A stretch of 64,000 bases of DNA from Escherichia coli. Lineage in GTDB: Bacteria > Pseudomonadota > Gammaproteobacteria > Enterobacterales > Enterobacteriaceae. How positions within the stretch are numbered: the stretch's first letter is position 1; each line of letters starts with the position of its first letter. Positions 26,601 through 38,600 of this stretch are shown here, piece after piece. The stretch lies in assembly GCF_044324785.1 (NCBI RefSeq), contig NZ_CP172127.1. One strand, written 5' to 3'. Position numbers: made by a program.

Positions 26601-29600
26601 TTAGCATCATTATCGCGCTATTCACGATTGTTCCAGCGATCTGTTATTTGCTGAGCGCGATTATCGCTAAACGCTACTACTCACTCACGACGCACAATCT
26701 GAAAACCGTTATGGAACAGCTGGCTCAGGGTAAACGCCGTTGCCAGCAACAATTCACCTCTCAAGAAGTGCAGAACTAAGGAACGGCAATGAAAATTAGC
26801 GATGGAAACTGGTTGATTCAACCTGGCCTCAATTTGATTCACCCGCTTCAGGTGTTCGAGGTTGAAGAGCAGGGTAATGAAATGGTGGTCTATGCTGCCC
26901 CCCGTGATGTGCGTGAACGTACCTGGCAGCTTGATACGCCTTTATTTACGCTGCGCTTTTTCTCCCCACAGGAAGGTATTGTCGGTGTACGGATTGAGCA
27001 TTTTCAGGGGGCGCTGAATAACGGTCCTCATTATCCGCTCAATATTTTGCAGGACGTGAAGGTCACAATCGAAAACACAGAACGTTACGCTGAGTTTAAA
27101 AGTGGCAACTTAAGTGCGCGTGTCAGCAAAGGTGAGTTCTGGTCACTGGATTTCCTGCGTAACGGCGAACGTATTACCGGTAGTCAGGTGAAAAATAATG
27201 GCTACGTGCAGGACACGAATAATCAACGAAATTATATGTTTGAGCGGCTGGATCTTGGCGTTGGCGAAACAGTTTACGGTCTGGGAGAGCGCTTTACTGC
27301 CCTGGTGCGCAATGGCCAGACGGTAGAGACCTGGAACCGGGACGGCGGCACAAGTACTGAACAGGCGTATAAAAATATTCCGTTCTATATGACTAACCGT
27401 GGTTATGGGGTACTGGTCAATCATCCTCAATGCGTCTCTTTTGAAGTGGGATCGGAGAAAGTCTCCAAAGTGCAGTTCAGCGTTGAGAGTGAATATCTCG
27501 AATACTTTGTTATCGACGGCCCGACGCCGAAAGCGGTACTTGATCGTTATACCCGTTTTACTGGTCGTCCGGCGCTGCCGCCCGCGTGGTCCTTCGGCCT
27601 GTGGCTAACCACTTCATTTACCACCAACTACGACGAAGCGACGGTAAACAGCTTTATCGATGGTATGGCGGAACGCAATCTGCCACTGCATGTTTTCCAC
27701 TTTGACTGTTTCTGGATGAAAGCCTTCCAGTGGTGCGATTTTGAGTGGGACCCGCTGACTTTCCCGGACCCGGAAGGGATGATCCGCCGCCTGAAAGCGA
27801 AAGGGCTAAAAATCTGCGTCTGGATTAACCCCTATATCGGGCAAAAATCCCCTGTCTTTAAAGAGTTACAAGAGAAAGGCTATTTACTCAAACGCCCGGA
27901 CGGTTCGTTATGGCAGTGGGATAAATGGCAGCCAGGTCTGGCGATTTATGACTTTACCAATCCGAATGCCTGCAAATGGTACGCCGACAAACTGAAAGGT
28001 CTGGTCGCGATGGGCGTTGATTGCTTTAAGACCGACTTTGGCGAACGTATTCCAACCGATGTTCAATGGTTTGACGGTTCCGATCCGCAGAAAATGCATA
28101 ACCATTATGCGTACATCTACAACGAACTGGTGTGGAACGTGCTCAAGGAAACCGTTGGCGAGGAAGAAGCCGTCTTGTTTGCTCGCTCGGCCTCCGTTGG
28201 TGCGCAGAAATTCCCGGTACACTGGGGTGGCGACTGTTACGCTAACTACGAATCAATGGCGGAAAGCCTGCGCGGTGGTTTGTCTATTGGCCTTTCAGGT
28301 TTTGGCTTCTGGAGCCACGATATCGGCGGCTTTGAGAATACCGCTCCGGCGCACGTTTACAAACGCTGGTGCGCGTTTGGTTTGTTCTCCAGCCATAGCC
28401 GTTTACATGGCAGCAAATCTTATCGTGTGCCGTGGGCCTATGATGATGAGTCCTGTGATGTGGTGCGCTTCTTCACGCAACTGAAATGCCGCATGATGCC
28501 GTATCTGTATCGTGAAGCTGCTCGTGCGAACGCGCGGGGTACGCCGATGATGCGGGCCATGATGATGGAGTTCCCGGACGATCCGGCTTGTGATTACCTT
28601 GACCGTCAATACATGTTAGGCGACAACGTGATGGTTGCGCCGGTGTTCACTGAATCGGGCGATGTGCAGTTCTACTTGCCGGAAGGTCGCTGGACACACC
28701 TGTGGCACAACGATGAACTCGATGGTAGTCGCTGGCATAAACAGCAGCACGGCTTTCTGAGTCTGCCCGTTTATGTGCGTGATAACACCCTACTGGCGCT
28801 GGGCAACAACGATCAACGTCCCGATTACGCGTGGCACGAAGGCACGGCATTCCAGCTCTTTAATCTGCAAGACGGGCATGAAGCCGTCTGTGAAGTGCCC
28901 GCTGCTGACGGTTCCGTTCTTTTCACCCTGAAAGCGGCGCGTACTGGCAACACGATTACTGTGACTGGTGCGGGCGAGGCGAAGAACTGGACACTGTGCT
29001 TGCGCAATATTGTGAAAGTAAATGGTTTGCAAGGCGGTTCGCAGGCTGAAAGTGAGCAGGGGCTGGTGGTGACGCCTCAAGGGAATGCGCTGACAATTAC
29101 GTTGTAATCTATTGAAGAATGCCGGATACGAATGGTTTTGTGTCGTATCCGGTAAATAATCTCACATCTGGTAATAAATATTTCTTCCATCGTATTTGCG
29201 AGCATGATCACGATTATTCATCGCGAAAATGTGATCTGTGCTGAAAAATATCCCTTAATCGCCTTGCTTTGTTTTATCACTGTCCGGATTACGGACAGAT
29301 TTTAGTATTGTTGTGAAATTATTCTGCTTTATATTTACCCTCAGAGATGGCAACTGAAGCTCTTCCATATGGGGCTTCTTAATCTGTGATAAGGGTAAAA
29401 AATGCAAATGATTACCTCGCGACAAAACAGATTATTACGATTCCTTTTACCTCGAAGGGAATATACGACTATTGTTACGATTGCCGGCTATTTAAATGTT
29501 TCGGAAAAAACCATTCAACGTGATTTACGTTTACTTGAGCAATGGCTGGGACAATGGAGAATAAATGTTGAGAAGCGTGCTGGCGCGGGTGTGATGTTAA

Positions 29601-35600: not shown

Positions 35601-38600
35601 CAGCACGGCGACAGTAGCGGAATGCGTGGCGCTGCCTGGCTTGCTATGCGCAACGGAGAAGCCAATGAAACGCTCACAAATTAATTATGTTATTGATAAA
35701 GCACATGCCATTGCGCAGACCTTCCGCGTTTGTTTGCCAGAGTTCGCCTATTTTACGGTGGATGACTGGCTGCAGCGGGAACGGGATAACTGGCAAGAAG
35801 TGGTCGACTTACAGCTCGGTTGGGATATCACCGATTTTGGTCGTGGTGATTTCAACCAAACGGGACTAACACTGCTAACGATGCGCAACGGCGCGCTGGG
35901 GTCGGCGGCATATCCAAAACCGTATGCTGAGAAAATGTTGCAGATCCAACAAGATCAGCAGACTCCCTGGCATTTTCACATCCACAAAATGGAAGATATC
36001 CTCAATCGGGGCGGTGGAGACTTATGCATGCAGTTGGCCTGGGCCAACGAAGCCAATCTCTGTGATGATCAACGAGTCATTACCGTGAGTGTTGATGGTC
36101 AGCGGCGTACCATGAAACCTGGTGAAACGCTGGTGCTAAAGCCGGGACAGGGCATTTGCCTGCCGCCGCGTCTGTATCATCGCTTCTGGGCGGAAAAAGC
36201 GTTTGTTCTCGGCTGGGAAATCTCGATGGTAAATGATGACCAACACGATAATTATTTTCTTGAGCCGGGAGGACGTTTTCCGGCGATAGAAGAAGATGAA
36301 CCGGTGAAATGGTTATTGTGCAGTGAGTATGGAATTTTGCGCTAATAACGGGGAACGCTAGCGCTGATATCCGCTAGCGTCCTTATTTTTACTGCACCGG
36401 CTCCGTCGACGTAACTTCACCACTGGAAACTACGCCCGCATTCATGGTTTGAGTCACTTGCTGCTTTGCGGCGTTCACGGCATGGAGTTGCCCGCTAACC
36501 GTAGGTTTCAGCGGGATATTGGCCTGAATATCGCCGCTGGCGGTAAGCTGAATATTGCCGTCGCCAGTCAACGGTAATTCAGGCCATCCCCACTGTTGCA
36601 AAATATTCACCGGCACACCGCGTCCATTCAGGCTGATATGGGTCTGACGTTGTGGCGTTTGTGAAACACTGGCGGTGGCTTCCAGAATGCCTTTTTCAGT
36701 AAATGCACTCAGTTCGCTGATATTCACCGTGCTGCTGTTGGCGGTTAGCGCCAGCGATGGGCGACGAATATCAACACGATTAAACGTCGCGGCGGCGGCA
36801 TTCAGATTCGCCGAGCCACTCCAGACGCCCCATTTATGATCGGTAACCAGCGTCAGATTGGCACCGTAACCATCGAGCGCGGTGAGCTGCCACGGGAAGT
36901 CAGGGTCGATATCAATGATCAGATTGCGGCTGGCGCTAAATCTCTTCAGTTGCAGGCTGTTTAACCAACCGGGTGTCGTTTCCATCCACAACTGTTGCCA
37001 GTTTTTTGGCAAGGTATATTCCAGTCCGGCAATTGCCGCATCATCAAGGATCAACGTTTTCCCGTTGCGCAGCCAGTTCCCGGACGTTCTGACCATGCCC
37101 CCTTCCCAGCGGCTGGTGAACTGGCGCAGCGCTACGCCCTGCGGGGAAAATTCCGCGTTTATAATCGGGTCAAATAAATGCAGCGAACCATAAATGAACT
37201 CGCTGGCGTTCATCGACAGTTTGCCTTCCTGTGTCTGCCAGTCATCTTTACTGAAGGTCATGTTGCGCAAGCTGAGATCGAGGTCGGTCACCGCCCAGTC
37301 CGGACCTTGCAAACGAGCATCGATGACTTCCAGGCGACCAATCTGCAACGACGGGACAGAGCGTAATGGCGCAAAGAAGTCGGTTAGCGATTTTTCGCTT
37401 TGTAGACGGATATCCGCCAGCCGCAGATTTTCCACTTGCCAGCTGCCGTCAGCGTTACGCTGCGCGTTTCCGGTTAATGTCCCGCGGGCGATGTCGGCAC
37501 CCAGGTTAGTCAGCGTAACGCGATCGTTATCAATACTGCCTTCAATCAGTACATTGGTGGCAGGAACATCATTGAGCGAAAGCGATCCGGCACTAAACTG
37601 AATCTGCGCCTTCGTACCCAGCACTTTACCGGCTTCAGGTGACCACGGAACCACGCCGCCATTTACTCGCTGCGCGCTTAGTTTCCATTCGCTATTCGGG
37701 CTATTAAACGCCATATCACGCAGTTGCAGACGATCGGCTTTGAACGGTAGCGGCGCGGTCTGGTCGGTGAGATTCAGCGTCCCGTTTTCCAGCAGGATGG
37801 TATCGACATGGCGTGGTTCGGTCAGTTGCCGACTGCTTAGCGCAATGTCGACACTTTTTGCCACCAGGGTCGCGGGCTGGCCATCACGACCAAACGTGAC
37901 GTTCTCCAGCACGATATGAGATGGCGCGGAAAAACGGTGATCCATCGCCCCGAAAGCCAGATGATAGTCGCTATTCTCGGAAACCCATGCGCTGATATGT
38001 TCTGCTCCCCAGCGGGTTTGCAGAAGAAAATAGAGGCCAGCGATCACCACTAACAGAGCGATGAGAATGTAGAGAAGCAGCTTCCCAATAAATTTCATGG
38101 TCTTCCATCCCGTGAAATGCACATAAGGGAGTTATGCACGATTTACGCGCAATCCTCAAGGCGGGAATGGTGAAAGAGGTGAGACTGCGGCGGTAATTAT
38201 CTTACCGCCGCCAGTGAATTACTGTTTTTCTGGTGGGAAAATCAGATTCAGCACGATGGCAGTAATACCGCCCGCGGCGATCCCGGAGGAGAGCAGGTTT
38301 TTCAGCCATTCAGGGGCAAACTGCAAAATCAGCGGCTGCTGAGAAACGCCCAGACCGACCGCTAGCGACAGCGCGATAATCAGAATCGCCCGACGGTTCA
38401 GCGGCTCACGAGAAACGATACGCACACCGGAGGCGGCGATGGTGCCAAACATTACAAGCGTTGCGCCGCCCAGAACCGGTTCTGGAATGTGTTGTACAAA
38501 ACCGCTCACTGCCGGGAACAGACCCAGCACGATCAACATCAGCGCGACGACAAAACCGACATAGCGGCTGGCAACACCGGTCAACTGGATCACACCGTTG

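Follow-up and report, generated by a model that had tools for sequence, protein, structure and literature searches.

The eight-gene cluster between yicI and yicH in the window, a 64,000-nucleotide stretch of the Escherichia coli contig NZ_CP172127.1, is by its sequence the published frz operon of E. coli, and its gene content is that expected of a self-contained catabolic module. The operon at this locus is already known. To the published description our analysis adds that four Citrobacter lineages and one Klebsiella sp. carry the operon after yicI, as diverged as its flanks; that the K-12 spacer retains a 10 nt relic of frzR at the breakpoint seen in HS-02; and that replacement of an aldolase arginine, together with lineages lacking the ROK kinase gene, favours a ketose-1-phosphate route. 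We regard the combined explanation, in which identity with frz is joined to loss from K-12 by deletion and to a catabolic route of the ketose-1-phosphate type, as highly probable.

All eight genes are intact and occupy the + strand from 29402, the A of the regulator ATG start, to 36345, the final base of the cupin stop codon. They encode, in order, a PRD/HTH activator, EIIA, EIIB, EIIC, two aldolases, a ROK kinase and a Lyx_isomer cupin, with lengths (517, 156, 104, 363, 283, 286, 310 and 226 aa) that match the PGAP-annotated orthologues of strain LF82. We assign the cluster to frz because the 7,281 bp interval is 99.4% identical to that of LF82, because the LF82 region listed in PMC12928451 as ‘GR27, yicH..yicI, 7227 bp, frz operon’ is given there as 99.74% identical to BEN2908 at 100% coverage, and because the gene content is as published. 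An earlier, sequence-only reading of this DNA had placed the module exactly and recognized its genes as co-oriented; the seven genes that it counted are eight, as its own list shows. The published name frz did not appear in that reading.

Rouquet et al. (2009, J Bacteriol 191:4427) described the operon in extraintestinal pathogenic E. coli, and secondary sources credit that work with showing that frz promotes fitness under stress. Secondary sources also state that frz biases the type 1 fimbrial switch to the ON state in avian ExPEC strain BEN2908. Reviews still give the function as not clearly known, and we found no sugar substrate reported in the searchable literature. Published phenotypes of fitness and fimbrial phase with no identified carbon source would suit a mainly sensory or regulatory PTS branch, wherein FrzR and its phosphorylation state cross-talk with the fim switch and yicJI while the enzymes have little catabolic importance or the operon is cryptic. 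This is very unlikely in our estimation. Catalytic residues are retained in all five classes of enzyme and transporter, on which strong purifying selection acts in at least five genera, and the conserved pairing of cupin and class II aldolase genes across unrelated transport contexts (seen in ABC-type clusters as well as in PTS-type clusters of Firmicutes) argues for a real pathway.

Table. Features of the frz locus and its flanks (positions in the window).
Feature	Position	Strand	Basis or remark
yicJ, GPH-family transporter	25397-26779	+	left flank; ORFs, LF82 and ES1 annotation
yicI, GH31 alpha-xylosidase	26789-29107	+	left flank; ORFs, LF82 and ES1 annotation
Hairpin GCCGGATACGA...TCGTATCCGGT	29121-29153		just 3′ of yicI stop; left edge of variable segment
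frz leader (putative control region)	29192-29339	+	alignment of E. coli, two Citrobacter, Raoultella, Salmonella, Klebsiella sp.
frzR, PRD-containing transcriptional activator, 517 aa	29402-30955	+	Pfam
GAGATTGATG inside frzR, codons E86-G89	29660-29669	+	10-mer surviving in K-12-type spacer, joined to yicH stop codon
PTS EIIA, fructose/mannitol type, 156 aa	30982-31452	+	PF00359 (PTS_EIIA_2) 4e-35
PTS EIIB, fructose type, 104 aa	31470-31784	+	PF02302 (PTS_IIB) 4e-19
PTS EIIC, fructose family, 363 aa	31809-32900	+	PTS_EIIC 5e-12
Aldolase 1, divergent class II Zn-type, 283 aa	32912-33763	+	PF01116 (F_bP_aldolase) 1e-74
Aldolase 2, class II, NCBIfam subfamily NF006042, 286 aa	33844-34704	+	F_bP_aldolase 1e-90
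ROK-family sugar kinase, 310 aa from PGAP start	34752-35684	+	PF00480 1e-73
Cupin, D-lyxose/D-mannose isomerase family, 226 aa	35665-36345	+	PF07385 (Lyx_isomer) 6e-87
GC-rich stem-loop + T-run, terminator-like	36355-36390	+	9 pairs, 6 GC; common to frz and convergent yicH; right edge of variable segment
yicH, AsmA family	36389-38098	-	right flank; ORFs, LF82 and ES1 annotation
xanP	38219-39610	-	beyond yicH, right flank

The 7.28 kb interval, scored as present when coverage was at least 80%, was found in 1,601 of 5,426 complete E. coli genomes (29.5%), where it is single-copy, chromosomal and located at the yicI/yicH site; none was found on true plasmids. A contiguous K-12-type empty junction was present in 3,817 genomes (70.3%). 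The window's host strain lies outside this set, in which the best match reaches 99.4% over the frz interval and 98.2% over 25 kb. In PMC12928451, Table S1 places frz in all B2-type reference strains and not in K-12, O157, 042 or the listed B1-type strains. The sequence-only reading was thus right that the module varies among strains and that yicI and yicH are neighbours in K-12; far from being present in all E. coli, the module is missing from K-12 itself, and in MG1655 the two stop codons are 52 bp apart. The polarity that it implied, with the module inserted between neighbouring core genes, is probably reversed in view of synteny across genera and the frzR relic in the K-12 spacer.

One 52 bp spacer, ending GAGATTGAT(G/T)T, is common to four diverse empty-site genomes. 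Its end matches frzR at 29660-29669 in the E. coli allele only, and the shared 10-mer GAGATTGATG is the only 10 nt match between spacer and insert (chance 0.023). Each E. coli frz copy examined contains this 10-mer exactly once, and the frzR of other genera does not contain it; genomes that carry frz lack the K-12 11-mer beside yicH. The 10-mer is also the frz breakpoint of the deletion derivative HS-02, whose state was seen in one of the 5,426 genomes. Because the spacer ends in a 10 nt piece of frzR exactly at the HS-02 breakpoint, the K-12-type empty site most probably represents the scar of a deletion, and the occupied state would be the older one in E. coli. HS-02 could alternatively reflect homology-facilitated illegitimate recombination between an frz+ chromosome and K-12-type DNA at this 10 nt microhomology. 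Sequence comparison shows the hairpin that bounds the variable segment on the left to be homologous to one within the 52 bp K-12 spacer; at the right junction the window, LF82 and 2012C-4221 do not differ.

The opposite course of events would make frz a horizontally acquired islet that was inserted between yicI and yicH in ExPEC-type lineages, leaving the K-12 site ancestral and never occupied. Consistent with such an origin, frz is missing from K-12 and 70% of genomes and, as listed in PMC12928451, from A-, B1- and E-type reference strains; GC content is lower in frzR and the EIIA and EIIB genes (41-44%) than in the remaining frz genes (50-56%); and the same eight-gene unit stands in an unrelated genomic context in Raoultella and, in Salmonella, within an island on the selC side, together with fragments of integrase and transposase. 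The frz module is therefore mobile between genera. For E. coli, however, we consider acquisition at this site unlikely. No integrase, tRNA, IS or flanking direct repeat was found at the E. coli junctions, and the order yicJ-yicI-frz-yicH-xanP-gltS recurs in four Citrobacter lineages, with yicJ-yicI-frz in one Klebsiella sp. and yicJI adjoining frz also in Salmonella. Synonymous divergence of frz is about equal to that of flanking yicI and yicH (both pS 0.67), E. coli alleles diverge from one another by up to 1-5%, as core genes do, and the frzR relic by yicH is of the E. coli type. Comparison of all eight genes with Citrobacter and Raoultella (dN 0.02-0.17, pS 0.57-0.78) establishes that frz is under purifying selection across genera.

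EIIA exceeds the cut-off of TIGR00848 (127 versus 103.5 bits) and carries the active-site His motif IAIPHG; EIIB exceeds that of TIGR00829 (100 versus 76.85 bits) and has the N-terminal Cys motif AACTAGIAHTY. EIIC, the ‘frz orf4’ named in APEC typing literature, scores 311.5 bits against a TIGR01427 cut-off of 157.55 (E 8e-93), falls under all equivalog cut-offs (FruA, FrwC/FryC, MngA) and is the most conserved frz gene product, with 96% amino acid identity to Citrobacter. Together the three proteins would import and phosphorylate a fructose-like sugar, most likely a ketose at C1.

The Zn aldolases would then split a ketose phosphate into DHAP and an aldehyde or aldose. They share 33% identity. 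Aldolase 1 has a short, YdjI-like catalytic loop, falls under all NCBIfam cut-offs, retains the equivalents of KbaY D82, H83, H180, H208 and N230, and compares with its Citrobacter counterpart at dN 0.11 and pS 0.66. Aldolase 2 retains the Zn ligands, scores 525.6 bits against the NF006042 cut-off of 405 and is 42-48% identical to cupin-adjoining aldolases at at least 11 other enterobacterial loci. At the position of KbaY R257, aldolase 1 has Leu, aldolase 2 has Asn and YdjI has Phe; this comparison depends on one alignment column, and aldolase 1 is poorly aligned around it. According to PMC10665668, an Arg of this type grips the distal phosphate and is lost in class II sulfofructose-1-phosphate aldolases (Ala in SqiA). 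Because both frz aldolases lack this Arg, like YdjI and SqiA, a monophosphate is a likelier substrate for them than a 1,6-bisphosphate.

The ROK protein has the ExGH and CxCGxxxC Zn motifs; its longest ORF begins at GTG 34719, upstream of the PGAP start, and it is the least conserved frz product. Its top NCBIfam model is the fructokinase Mak (PRK09557, 318 bits versus a cut-off of 443) and its nearest PDB entry is NagK. In C. youngae, C. werkmanii and Klebsiella sp. the frz operon is otherwise intact but the ROK gene is cleanly missing, so this step would be dispensable in some lineages. The cupin gene begins 20 nt before the end of the ROK gene. Its product matches PDB 3KMH/3MPB (Z5688; phmmer E=5e-64), is about 48-50% identical to Z5688-type relatives, and keeps H103, H105, K108, E110, H172, E185, D192 and K90, which are invariant across 20 homologues. 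The cupin, converting a free manno/lyxo-aldose to a ketose, and the Mak-like kinase would salvage free sugar into central metabolism. No frz enzyme reached an NCBIfam equivalog cut-off, and the view of the sequence-only reading that the substrate cannot be read from sequence accords with this result and with the reviews.

A bisphosphate route is possible, if the less probable course. The PTS would yield a ketohexose-1-phosphate (e.g. tagatose, psicose or sorbose), the ROK kinase would add a 6-phosphate, and GatY/KbaY-like aldolases would release DHAP and glyceraldehyde-3-phosphate, with the cupin feeding in the matching aldose (talose, mannose or gulose). One PTS and one kinase could supply the two phosphates; RefSeq names the aldolases ‘ketose-bisphosphate aldolase’ and ‘class II fructose-bisphosphate aldolase’, their best characterized relatives act on fructose or tagatose bisphosphate, and Cricetibacter and Serratia clusters pair ROK and PfkB kinases with a cupin and an aldolase. 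Against it stand the missing R257 clamp, the absence of an encoded GatZ/KbaZ-type partner, the ROK-less operons, and the specificity of the best-matching ROK kinases (Mak, NagK, glucokinase and NanK), which act on free sugars and are not known to act on sugar phosphates. The ketose-1-phosphate route is favoured because the aldolases lack the distal-phosphate Arg and the ROK gene is missing in three lineages. Its steps are predicted from homology, and a free-sugar isomerase fits less than cleanly into a pathway fed by a PTS.

Control of the operon can be predicted from FrzR and its leader. FrzR comprises HTH_11 (7-63), Mga HTH (92-169), PRD1, PRD2 (324-413) and EIIB(Gat)-like (422-498) domains (PRD E=2e-30); Pfam detected neither an EIIA domain nor a CAT RNA-binding domain. 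H233, H349 and C427 are invariant in six of six orthologues, and H409 is kept in the five enterobacterial orthologues and is Tyr in Sporolactobacillus. The nearest PDB entries are the LicT PRDs, AtxA and AcpB. RefSeq labels the protein ‘BglG family transcription antiterminator’ despite the lack of a CAT domain. FrzR would be a DNA-binding activator like MtlR, LicR and ManR, not an antiterminator, and, to our knowledge, activators of this type are unusual in Enterobacteriaceae.

The leader is kept in five genera, whatever gene stands upstream. Its conserved blocks are GTATTTGCGAGC (29192-29203), TGTGATCTG (29230-29238), a palindrome CTGTCCG-N5-CGGACAG (29280-29298; also found as a stem-loop by a separate hairpin scan) followed by ATTTTAGTATTGTTG, and TTTATATTTACC (29328-29339), which holds a candidate -10 element, TATATT (29330-35), preceded by a weak -35, TTGTTG (29308-13). 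A simple scan found no strong sigma-70 promoter in the leader. We infer that these elements form an operator and promoter. FrzR probably binds the palindrome upstream of the weak promoter, and PTS phosphorylation at H233, H349, H409 and C427 would switch it, such that the operon is on only during transport of its sugar with HPr~P available.

Four known systems place these features in context. The frz operon of avian ExPEC BEN2908, as described for GR27 in PMC12928451, has the same locus (yicH..yicI), size (about 7.2 kb), eight genes and gene order; nothing essential differs, and the window carries an allele of one operon.

The B. subtilis operons ManR-ManP-ManA, MtlR-MtlAFD and LicR likewise place an activator of HTH-Mga-PRD1-PRD2-EIIB(Gat) architecture, with conserved His and Cys, beside a fructose/mannitol-superfamily PTS and an isomerase. 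Unlike these Firmicute activators, FrzR stops after its EIIB-like domain, with EIIA(Mtl) missing; EIIA is encoded by a gene of its own just after frzR, as in a Sporolactobacillus relative with two EIIA genes.

GatY/KbaY (gat/aga), YdjI and SqiA share the PF01116 fold family, Zn ligands and catalytic Asp/Asn with the frz aldolases, and gat/aga aldolases too belong to a PTS-linked operon. Identity is only 31-33%, however, the clamp is replaced as in YdjI and SqiA, frz has no GatZ/KbaZ partner, and it encodes two divergent aldolase paralogues side by side.

The Z5688 isomerase of E. coli O157:H7, whose strains lack frz as listed in PMC12928451, belongs to the same cupin family, with all metal and substrate residues conserved, although the frz cupin falls below the cut-off of the corresponding equivalog LyManIsomGneg (272 versus 350 bits). 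In both cluster types a class II aldolase gene directly adjoins the cupin gene. In Z5688-type clusters, viewed through relatives about 48% identical to the frz cupin, an ABC transporter stands in place of the PTS, a two-component system in place of the PRD activator and a PfkB kinase in place of the ROK kinase, and there is one aldolase where frz has two.

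Eight consecutive open reading frames on the plus strand, encoding proteins of 517, 156, 104, 363, 283, 286, 310-321 and 226-239 amino acids, occupy positions 29402-36345 of the window. The sequence-only reading had given these coordinates and gene identities, and the open reading frames and Pfam matches agree with it; its total of seven genes was a miscount, its own list naming the eight that were found. In order, the Pfam assignments are a regulator with HTH_11, Mga, two PRD and PTS_IIB-like domains, then PTS_EIIA_2, PTS_IIB, PTS_EIIC, two copies of F_bP_aldolase, ROK and Lyx_isomer (E-values across the genes from 5e-12 to 1e-90), and the gene lengths are those of the RefSeq-annotated orthologues in E. 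coli LF82. The module is flanked on the left by yicJ-yicI and on the right by yicH-xanP. In K-12 MG1655, yicI and yicH are convergent with stop codons 52 bp apart, and thus are neighbours as that reading had stated.

The location between yicI and yicH, the eight-gene content defined by Pfam and NCBIfam, and the identity to a strain that carries frz all assign the module to the published frz operon. Specifically, the BEN2908 genome paper describes region GR27, bounded 'yicH..yicI' and 7,227 bp in length, as the 'frz operon (Rouquet 2009)', and its Table S1 lists GR27 of LF82 with 100% coverage and 99.74% identity to BEN2908 (PMC12928451). The window matches LF82 with 99.4% identity across 7,281 bp. 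The operon described in 2009 reportedly encodes a PTS activator, a fructose-subfamily EIIA, EIIB and EIIC, a pair of class II ketose-bisphosphate aldolases, a kinase of the ROK family and a cupin protein, a list that agrees with the secondary literature. By these measures the module is a member of the frz operon, and it is therefore already known.

The frz operon is already in the literature as a marker of ExPEC and APEC that is linked to fitness and virulence; its orf4 is used in typing, and its presence in a genome is routine. According to passages in secondary sources, frz is transcribed as one unit, helps cells to survive late stationary phase when oxygen is restricted, and biases the type 1 fimbrial switch to the ON orientation (PMC12928451, PMC8777976, PMC6727828, PMC3325963, PMC8069529). 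A 2021 review classes it among 'unknown/not clearly known functions', and our literature searches, in which the primary 2009 paper was known via secondary sources, found no later report of a frz substrate. What is new here is the genome-scale frequency, the cross-genus synteny, a probable deletion scar in K-12, natural variants without the ROK gene, a conserved leader palindrome and a missing distal-phosphate arginine. These increments leave the classification as frz unchanged.

At least 80% of the frz interval is present in 1,601 of 5,426 complete E. coli genomes (29.5%), where it is chromosomal and occurs as one copy per genome. A 440 bp K-12 junction probe matches without interruption in 3,817 of the genomes (70.3%), and the few that remain include a deletion derivative and IS-interrupted frz copies. 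These numbers of carriers and empty junctions bear out the proposal that the module is strain-variable; rather than being present in all E. coli, it is missing from K-12 and from about 70% of the genomes. Carriage of frz on plasmids was considered and rejected, as the sole full-length 'plasmid' match is a 4.9-Mb record that is a mislabelled chromosome. Separately, in K-12-like genome NZ_CP148133.1, probably that of an engineered strain, a gene for a TetR/AcrR-family regulator sits inside the 52-bp junction and extends the 440-bp stretch to 1.1 kb.

The comparison of phylogroups draws on a published table of 22 strains (PMC12928451) and not on the 5,426 genomes. In this table, frz is present in APEC O1, IMT5155, RS218, IHE3034, UTI89, 78-Pyelo, CFT073, NRG857c, LF82, E2348/69 and SCU-397, and absent from chi7122, O157:H7 Sakai, EDL933, 11368, 11128, H10407, E24377A, 042, 2009EL-2050, 55989 and K-12 (PMC12928451).

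The conserved synteny, a synonymous divergence like that of the flanking genes, clean junctions, and a 10-mer from frzR in the K-12 spacer make it very probable that frz was deleted in the K-12 lineage. Among the matches listed, the order yicJ-yicI-frz-yicH-xanP-gltS recurs in a Citrobacter metagenome contig, Citrobacter sp. FP75, C. youngae and C. werkmanii, and in a Klebsiella sp. (L093) frz lies directly downstream of yicI. These cross-genus loci derive from a cupin-profile search of genome contigs (at least 600 stretches, 80 loci retained); E. coli, Raoultella, Salmonella and Klebsiella are absent from those 80, and the Raoultella, Salmonella, Klebsiella and one Citrobacter locus were found via exact-protein look-ups. 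A further look-up, for a Z5688-like protein, led to a contig of just 1.4 kb. Between E. coli and Citrobacter, pS (the proportion of synonymous differences, which is saturated at 0.55-0.8 and so shows similar age but gives no date) is 0.57-0.78 for the frz genes and 0.67 for each of the flanking core genes yicI and yicH, and dN is far below pS in all eight frz genes. Because pS matches that of the neighbours and dN is far lower, frz is as old at this site as its flanks, with purifying selection on every gene.

No integrase, IS element, tRNA or flanking repeat was found at the E. coli junctions or within 29108-36388. Likewise, no direct or inverted repeat of at least 14 nt flanks frz, the only nearby tRNA is selC at a distance of 4 kb, and an Rfam search returned no element at frz or in its leader. 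A classical genomic island or transposon was rejected for want of an integrase, tRNA target, repeats and IS elements, only the 5′ third of the operon having lower GC.

In K-12 the 52-bp spacer runs from the yicI hairpin through GAGATTGATGT to the yicH stop codon. Its only 10-nt match to the 7.28-kb insert is GAGATTGATG, located in frzR (29660-29669) in the same orientation, although the chance that a random 11-mer has a 10-nt match anywhere in the insert is 0.023, which is a caveat on the scar. All E. coli frz copies examined contain this 10-mer a single time, and frzR of Citrobacter, Raoultella, Salmonella and Klebsiella lacks it. E. coli strain HS-02 keeps the first 562 bp of the interval, consisting of the leader and a frameshifted 5′ fragment of frzR (L003 4001-4571). 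The fragment stops exactly at GAGATTGATG and is joined to yicH at the 11-mer with which the K-12 spacer also ends. HS-02 is the only such intermediate among the 5,426 genomes, and four empty-site genomes whose flanks differ from K-12 by up to 6.6% all have the identical spacer. The simplest reading of these sequences is that two deletions occurred, the first yielding a state like that of HS-02 and the second the 52-bp spacer, with a single origin of the empty allele. Alternatively, HS-02 could be the product of a homology-facilitated illegitimate recombination event at the microhomology, with K-12-type DNA as the partner.

If K-12 and other A/B1/E-type strains did lose frz by deletion, the operon is not an acquired 'virulence' gene set, and would represent an ancestral enterobacterial sugar pathway kept by B2-type lineages. 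As to phylogroups, we take the frz-positive strains among the 22 to be B2, and the frz-negative strains to belong to A, B1 and E, together with one D strain.

The module is also mobile, as its differing contexts in Salmonella and Raoultella show. The eight frz genes of Salmonella enterica (L092 3726-15113) are found on the other side of yicJI, adjoining an integrase Arm-domain fragment and transposase remnants, and yicI is adjacent to yicH with an unrelated 102-bp spacer. In Raoultella, frz resides in an unrelated context. Among the matches listed, four genera show linkage of frz to yicJI, which encodes an alpha-xyloside transporter and an alpha-xylosidase.

Features of the window located around the frz operon
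Feature	Position	Strand	Remark
P4-type integrase	23526-24710	-	selC-associated island
tRNA-Sec (selC)	25010-25104	-	selC-associated island
Perfect palindrome CTGTCCG-N5-CGGACAG	29280-29298		frz leader, cross-genus alignment
TATATT element	29330-35		frz leader, cross-genus alignment
288-aa ORF	41098-41964	+	between gltS and recG; end overlaps recG stop codon

A selC-associated island occupies window positions 1-25104, to the left of yicJI and about 4 kb from frz. In addition to the genes tabulated, it carries genes for a TPR protein, a phosphoethanolamine transferase, PhoX, a truncated beta-strand-repeat protein, a carbohydrate porin, an MFS transporter, a GH43 protein and an HNH endonuclease, as well as xylA and ISEc8/IS66 and IS3 remnants. 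The island resembles AGI-3, the carbohydrate-uptake selC island that adjoins frz in BEN2908, and is 100.0% identical over 25 kb to that of E. coli ES1/ST38. A sharp break in identity occurs at selC (~25212), to the left of which the window matches ES1 exactly and to the right of which (to 64000) it is 98.5% identical to ES1. Furthermore, positions 25200-50000 show at most 98.2% identity to any of the 5,426 complete genomes. The break and this low identity imply either that the host of the window lies outside the 5,426 genomes or that the region right of selC is a recombination mosaic. Elsewhere, the 288-aa ORF has no Pfam match; it is annotated as a 'hypothetical protein' in 2012C-4221, and ES1, LF82 and Citrobacter lack this segment.

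The transport genes are assigned by their profile matches to the fructose (Fru) family of PTS components, with EIIA scoring 127 bits for TIGR00848 (cut-off 103.5), EIIB 100 bits for TIGR00829 (cut-off 76.85) and EIIC 311.5 bits for TIGR01427 (cut-off 157.55). Both phosphorylation-site motifs are evident, IAIPHG with its His in EIIA and AACTAGIAHT with its Cys in EIIB. NCBIfam models gave no orthology to FruA, FrwC/FryC, FrvB or MngA (297 versus a cut-off of 793 for FruBC, 250 versus 763 for MngA). As far as these models can tell, no frz protein is orthologous to one of known substrate, which is consistent with the earlier statement that the substrate cannot be read from sequence.

Aldolases 1 and 2 match the metal-dependent (class II) TIM-barrel family PF01116 (1e-74 and 1e-90), share 33% identity with each other and are each 31-33% identical to GatY, KbaY and YdjI. 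Both keep the equivalents of KbaY D82, H83, H180, H208 and N230, which are zinc ligands and the catalytic Asp/Asn, and neither reaches the NCBIfam cut-offs of the GatY/KbaY/FbaA equivalogs. The arginine by which bisphosphate aldolases hold the distal phosphate (KbaY R257 / FbaA R331) is present in neither enzyme. The position of KbaY/GatY R257 is occupied by Leu in aldolase 1, by Asn in aldolase 2, and by Phe both in the ketose-1-phosphate aldolase YdjI and in an aldolase from a Pseudescherichia vulneris cluster. The corresponding arginine of FBP aldolases is replaced by Ala in class II sulfofructose-1-phosphate aldolases (PMC10665668).

The ROK kinase (PF00480, 1e-73) has no N-terminal HTH and carries the zinc-binding Cys motif CYCGKHNC and an ExGH motif (ECGH). 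Orthology to Mak, NagK, AlsK, NanK or Glk was not found with NCBIfam; the closest model is Mak manno(fructo)kinase, which is below its cut-off (318 versus 443 bits), as is NagK (246 versus 380). Among the matches listed, C. youngae, C. werkmanii and Klebsiella sp. have seven-gene frz operons from which the ROK gene is cleanly gone with the other genes intact, so that the cupin gene lies approximately 50-65 nt beyond aldolase 2.

The cupin (PF07385, 6e-87) matches Z5688 (3KMH/3MPB), the D-lyxose/D-mannose isomerase of E. coli O157:H7, at E=5e-64, and is ~48-50% identical to Z5688-type relatives. Z5688 has been characterised structurally and biochemically, and the frz cupin keeps all of its metal-binding and catalytic residues: the manganese ligands H103, H105, E110 and H172 (two His, Glu and His) and the catalytic K108, E185 and D192 are invariant (residue roles from PMC8378251). 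Its sugar specificity may differ from that of Z5688, because it scores 272 against the cut-off of 350 for the NCBIfam equivalog LyManIsomGneg.

A Lyx_isomer cupin gene directly followed by an aldolase-2-like class II aldolase gene occurs in at least 11 other enterobacterial loci. In the locus examined in detail, that of P. vulneris (L021 4065-13306), the pair is joined by a sugar ABC transporter, a PfkB kinase and a two-component system made up of a hybrid histidine kinase and a response regulator; a Cricetibacter cluster (L036 2391-12545) is of the same type and has a ROK kinase besides PfkB. The two represent a second, paralogous type of cupin cluster (48% identity, Z5688-like), which looks like an isomerase-kinase-aldolase pathway, as yet uncharacterised, that acts on a free aldose. 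In Sporolactobacillus, the pair resides in a PTS cluster with an FGGY kinase. Recurrence of the pair in unrelated clusters indicates, at the level of gene context, that the isomerase and the aldolase share one pathway of the isomerase-kinase-aldolase kind.

The cupin-aldolase pairing, the loss of R257 and the operons without a ROK gene lead us to prefer, moderately and with roughly even confidence, a route via a ketose-1-phosphate over one via a 1,6-bisphosphate. The PTS would import the sugar to give a ketose-1-phosphate, the aldolases would cleave this compound to DHAP and an aldehyde or aldose, and the cupin and ROK kinase would salvage a free sugar. The textbook route via a ketose 1,6-bisphosphate is the less likely one, given that both aldolases lack the distal-phosphate Arg and that C. 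youngae, C. werkmanii and Klebsiella sp. have frz operons complete but for the ROK gene. We attach only a small probability to an undescribed route, wherein the PTS brings in an unusual ketose (a rare hexulose or a C7-C9 plant ketose) as its 1-phosphate, two class II aldolases resembling YdjI and SqiA cut it without a second phosphorylation, and the freed manno/lyxo aldose is salvaged by the cupin and the Mak-like kinase. If this undescribed route were true, the conserved proximity to yicJI, whose products import and hydrolyse alpha-glycosides, would mean that both draw on a common glycan source of dietary or host origin, and that source could account for the fitness advantage that B2-type E. 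coli have in the gut and at extraintestinal sites. The Arg-less aldolases, variants without ROK, cupin-aldolase pair, leader palindrome and yicJI linkage narrow the enzymology and make the substrate question more testable.

Blocks of the 294-bp leader are invariant across five genera, whatever gene lies upstream. On the basis of this cross-genus conservation, the palindrome is a candidate operator and TATATT would be the -10 element of an activator-dependent promoter. A simple sigma-70 consensus scan of the leader gave no convincing promoter.

By Pfam, the putative activator FrzR begins with the DNA-binding domains HTH_11 and Mga, which are followed by two PRDs with their His residues and an EIIB(Gat)-like domain with its Cys, as a PRD activator should. 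H233 (PRD1), H349 (PRD2) and C427 do not vary among the six orthologues, which range from E. coli to Sporolactobacillus; H409, also in PRD2, is conserved in the five enterobacterial proteins, and its place is taken by Tyr in that of Sporolactobacillus. No C-terminal EIIA(Mtl/Fru)-like domain was found, as FrzR stops at residue 517 just past the EIIB-like domain. A separate EIIA gene comes after frzR, and in Sporolactobacillus an extra EIIA gene overlaps the stop codon of the regulator gene. Pfam detects no CAT RNA-binding domain in FrzR, and the RefSeq/PGAP name 'BglG family transcription antiterminator' for FrzR and its orthologues is therefore misleading and probably wrong, the N-terminus being HTH_11 and Mga. 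Activators such as MtlR, LicR and ManR combine HTH/Mga domains, two PRDs and EIIB(Gat) with a terminal EIIA domain. FrzR shares this architecture except for the terminal EIIA domain. In contrast, its likeness to LicT among the BglG/SacY/LicT antiterminators is confined to the PRDs, Rfam gives no match for a RAT/terminator target in the leader, and the CAT domain of these proteins has no counterpart in FrzR.
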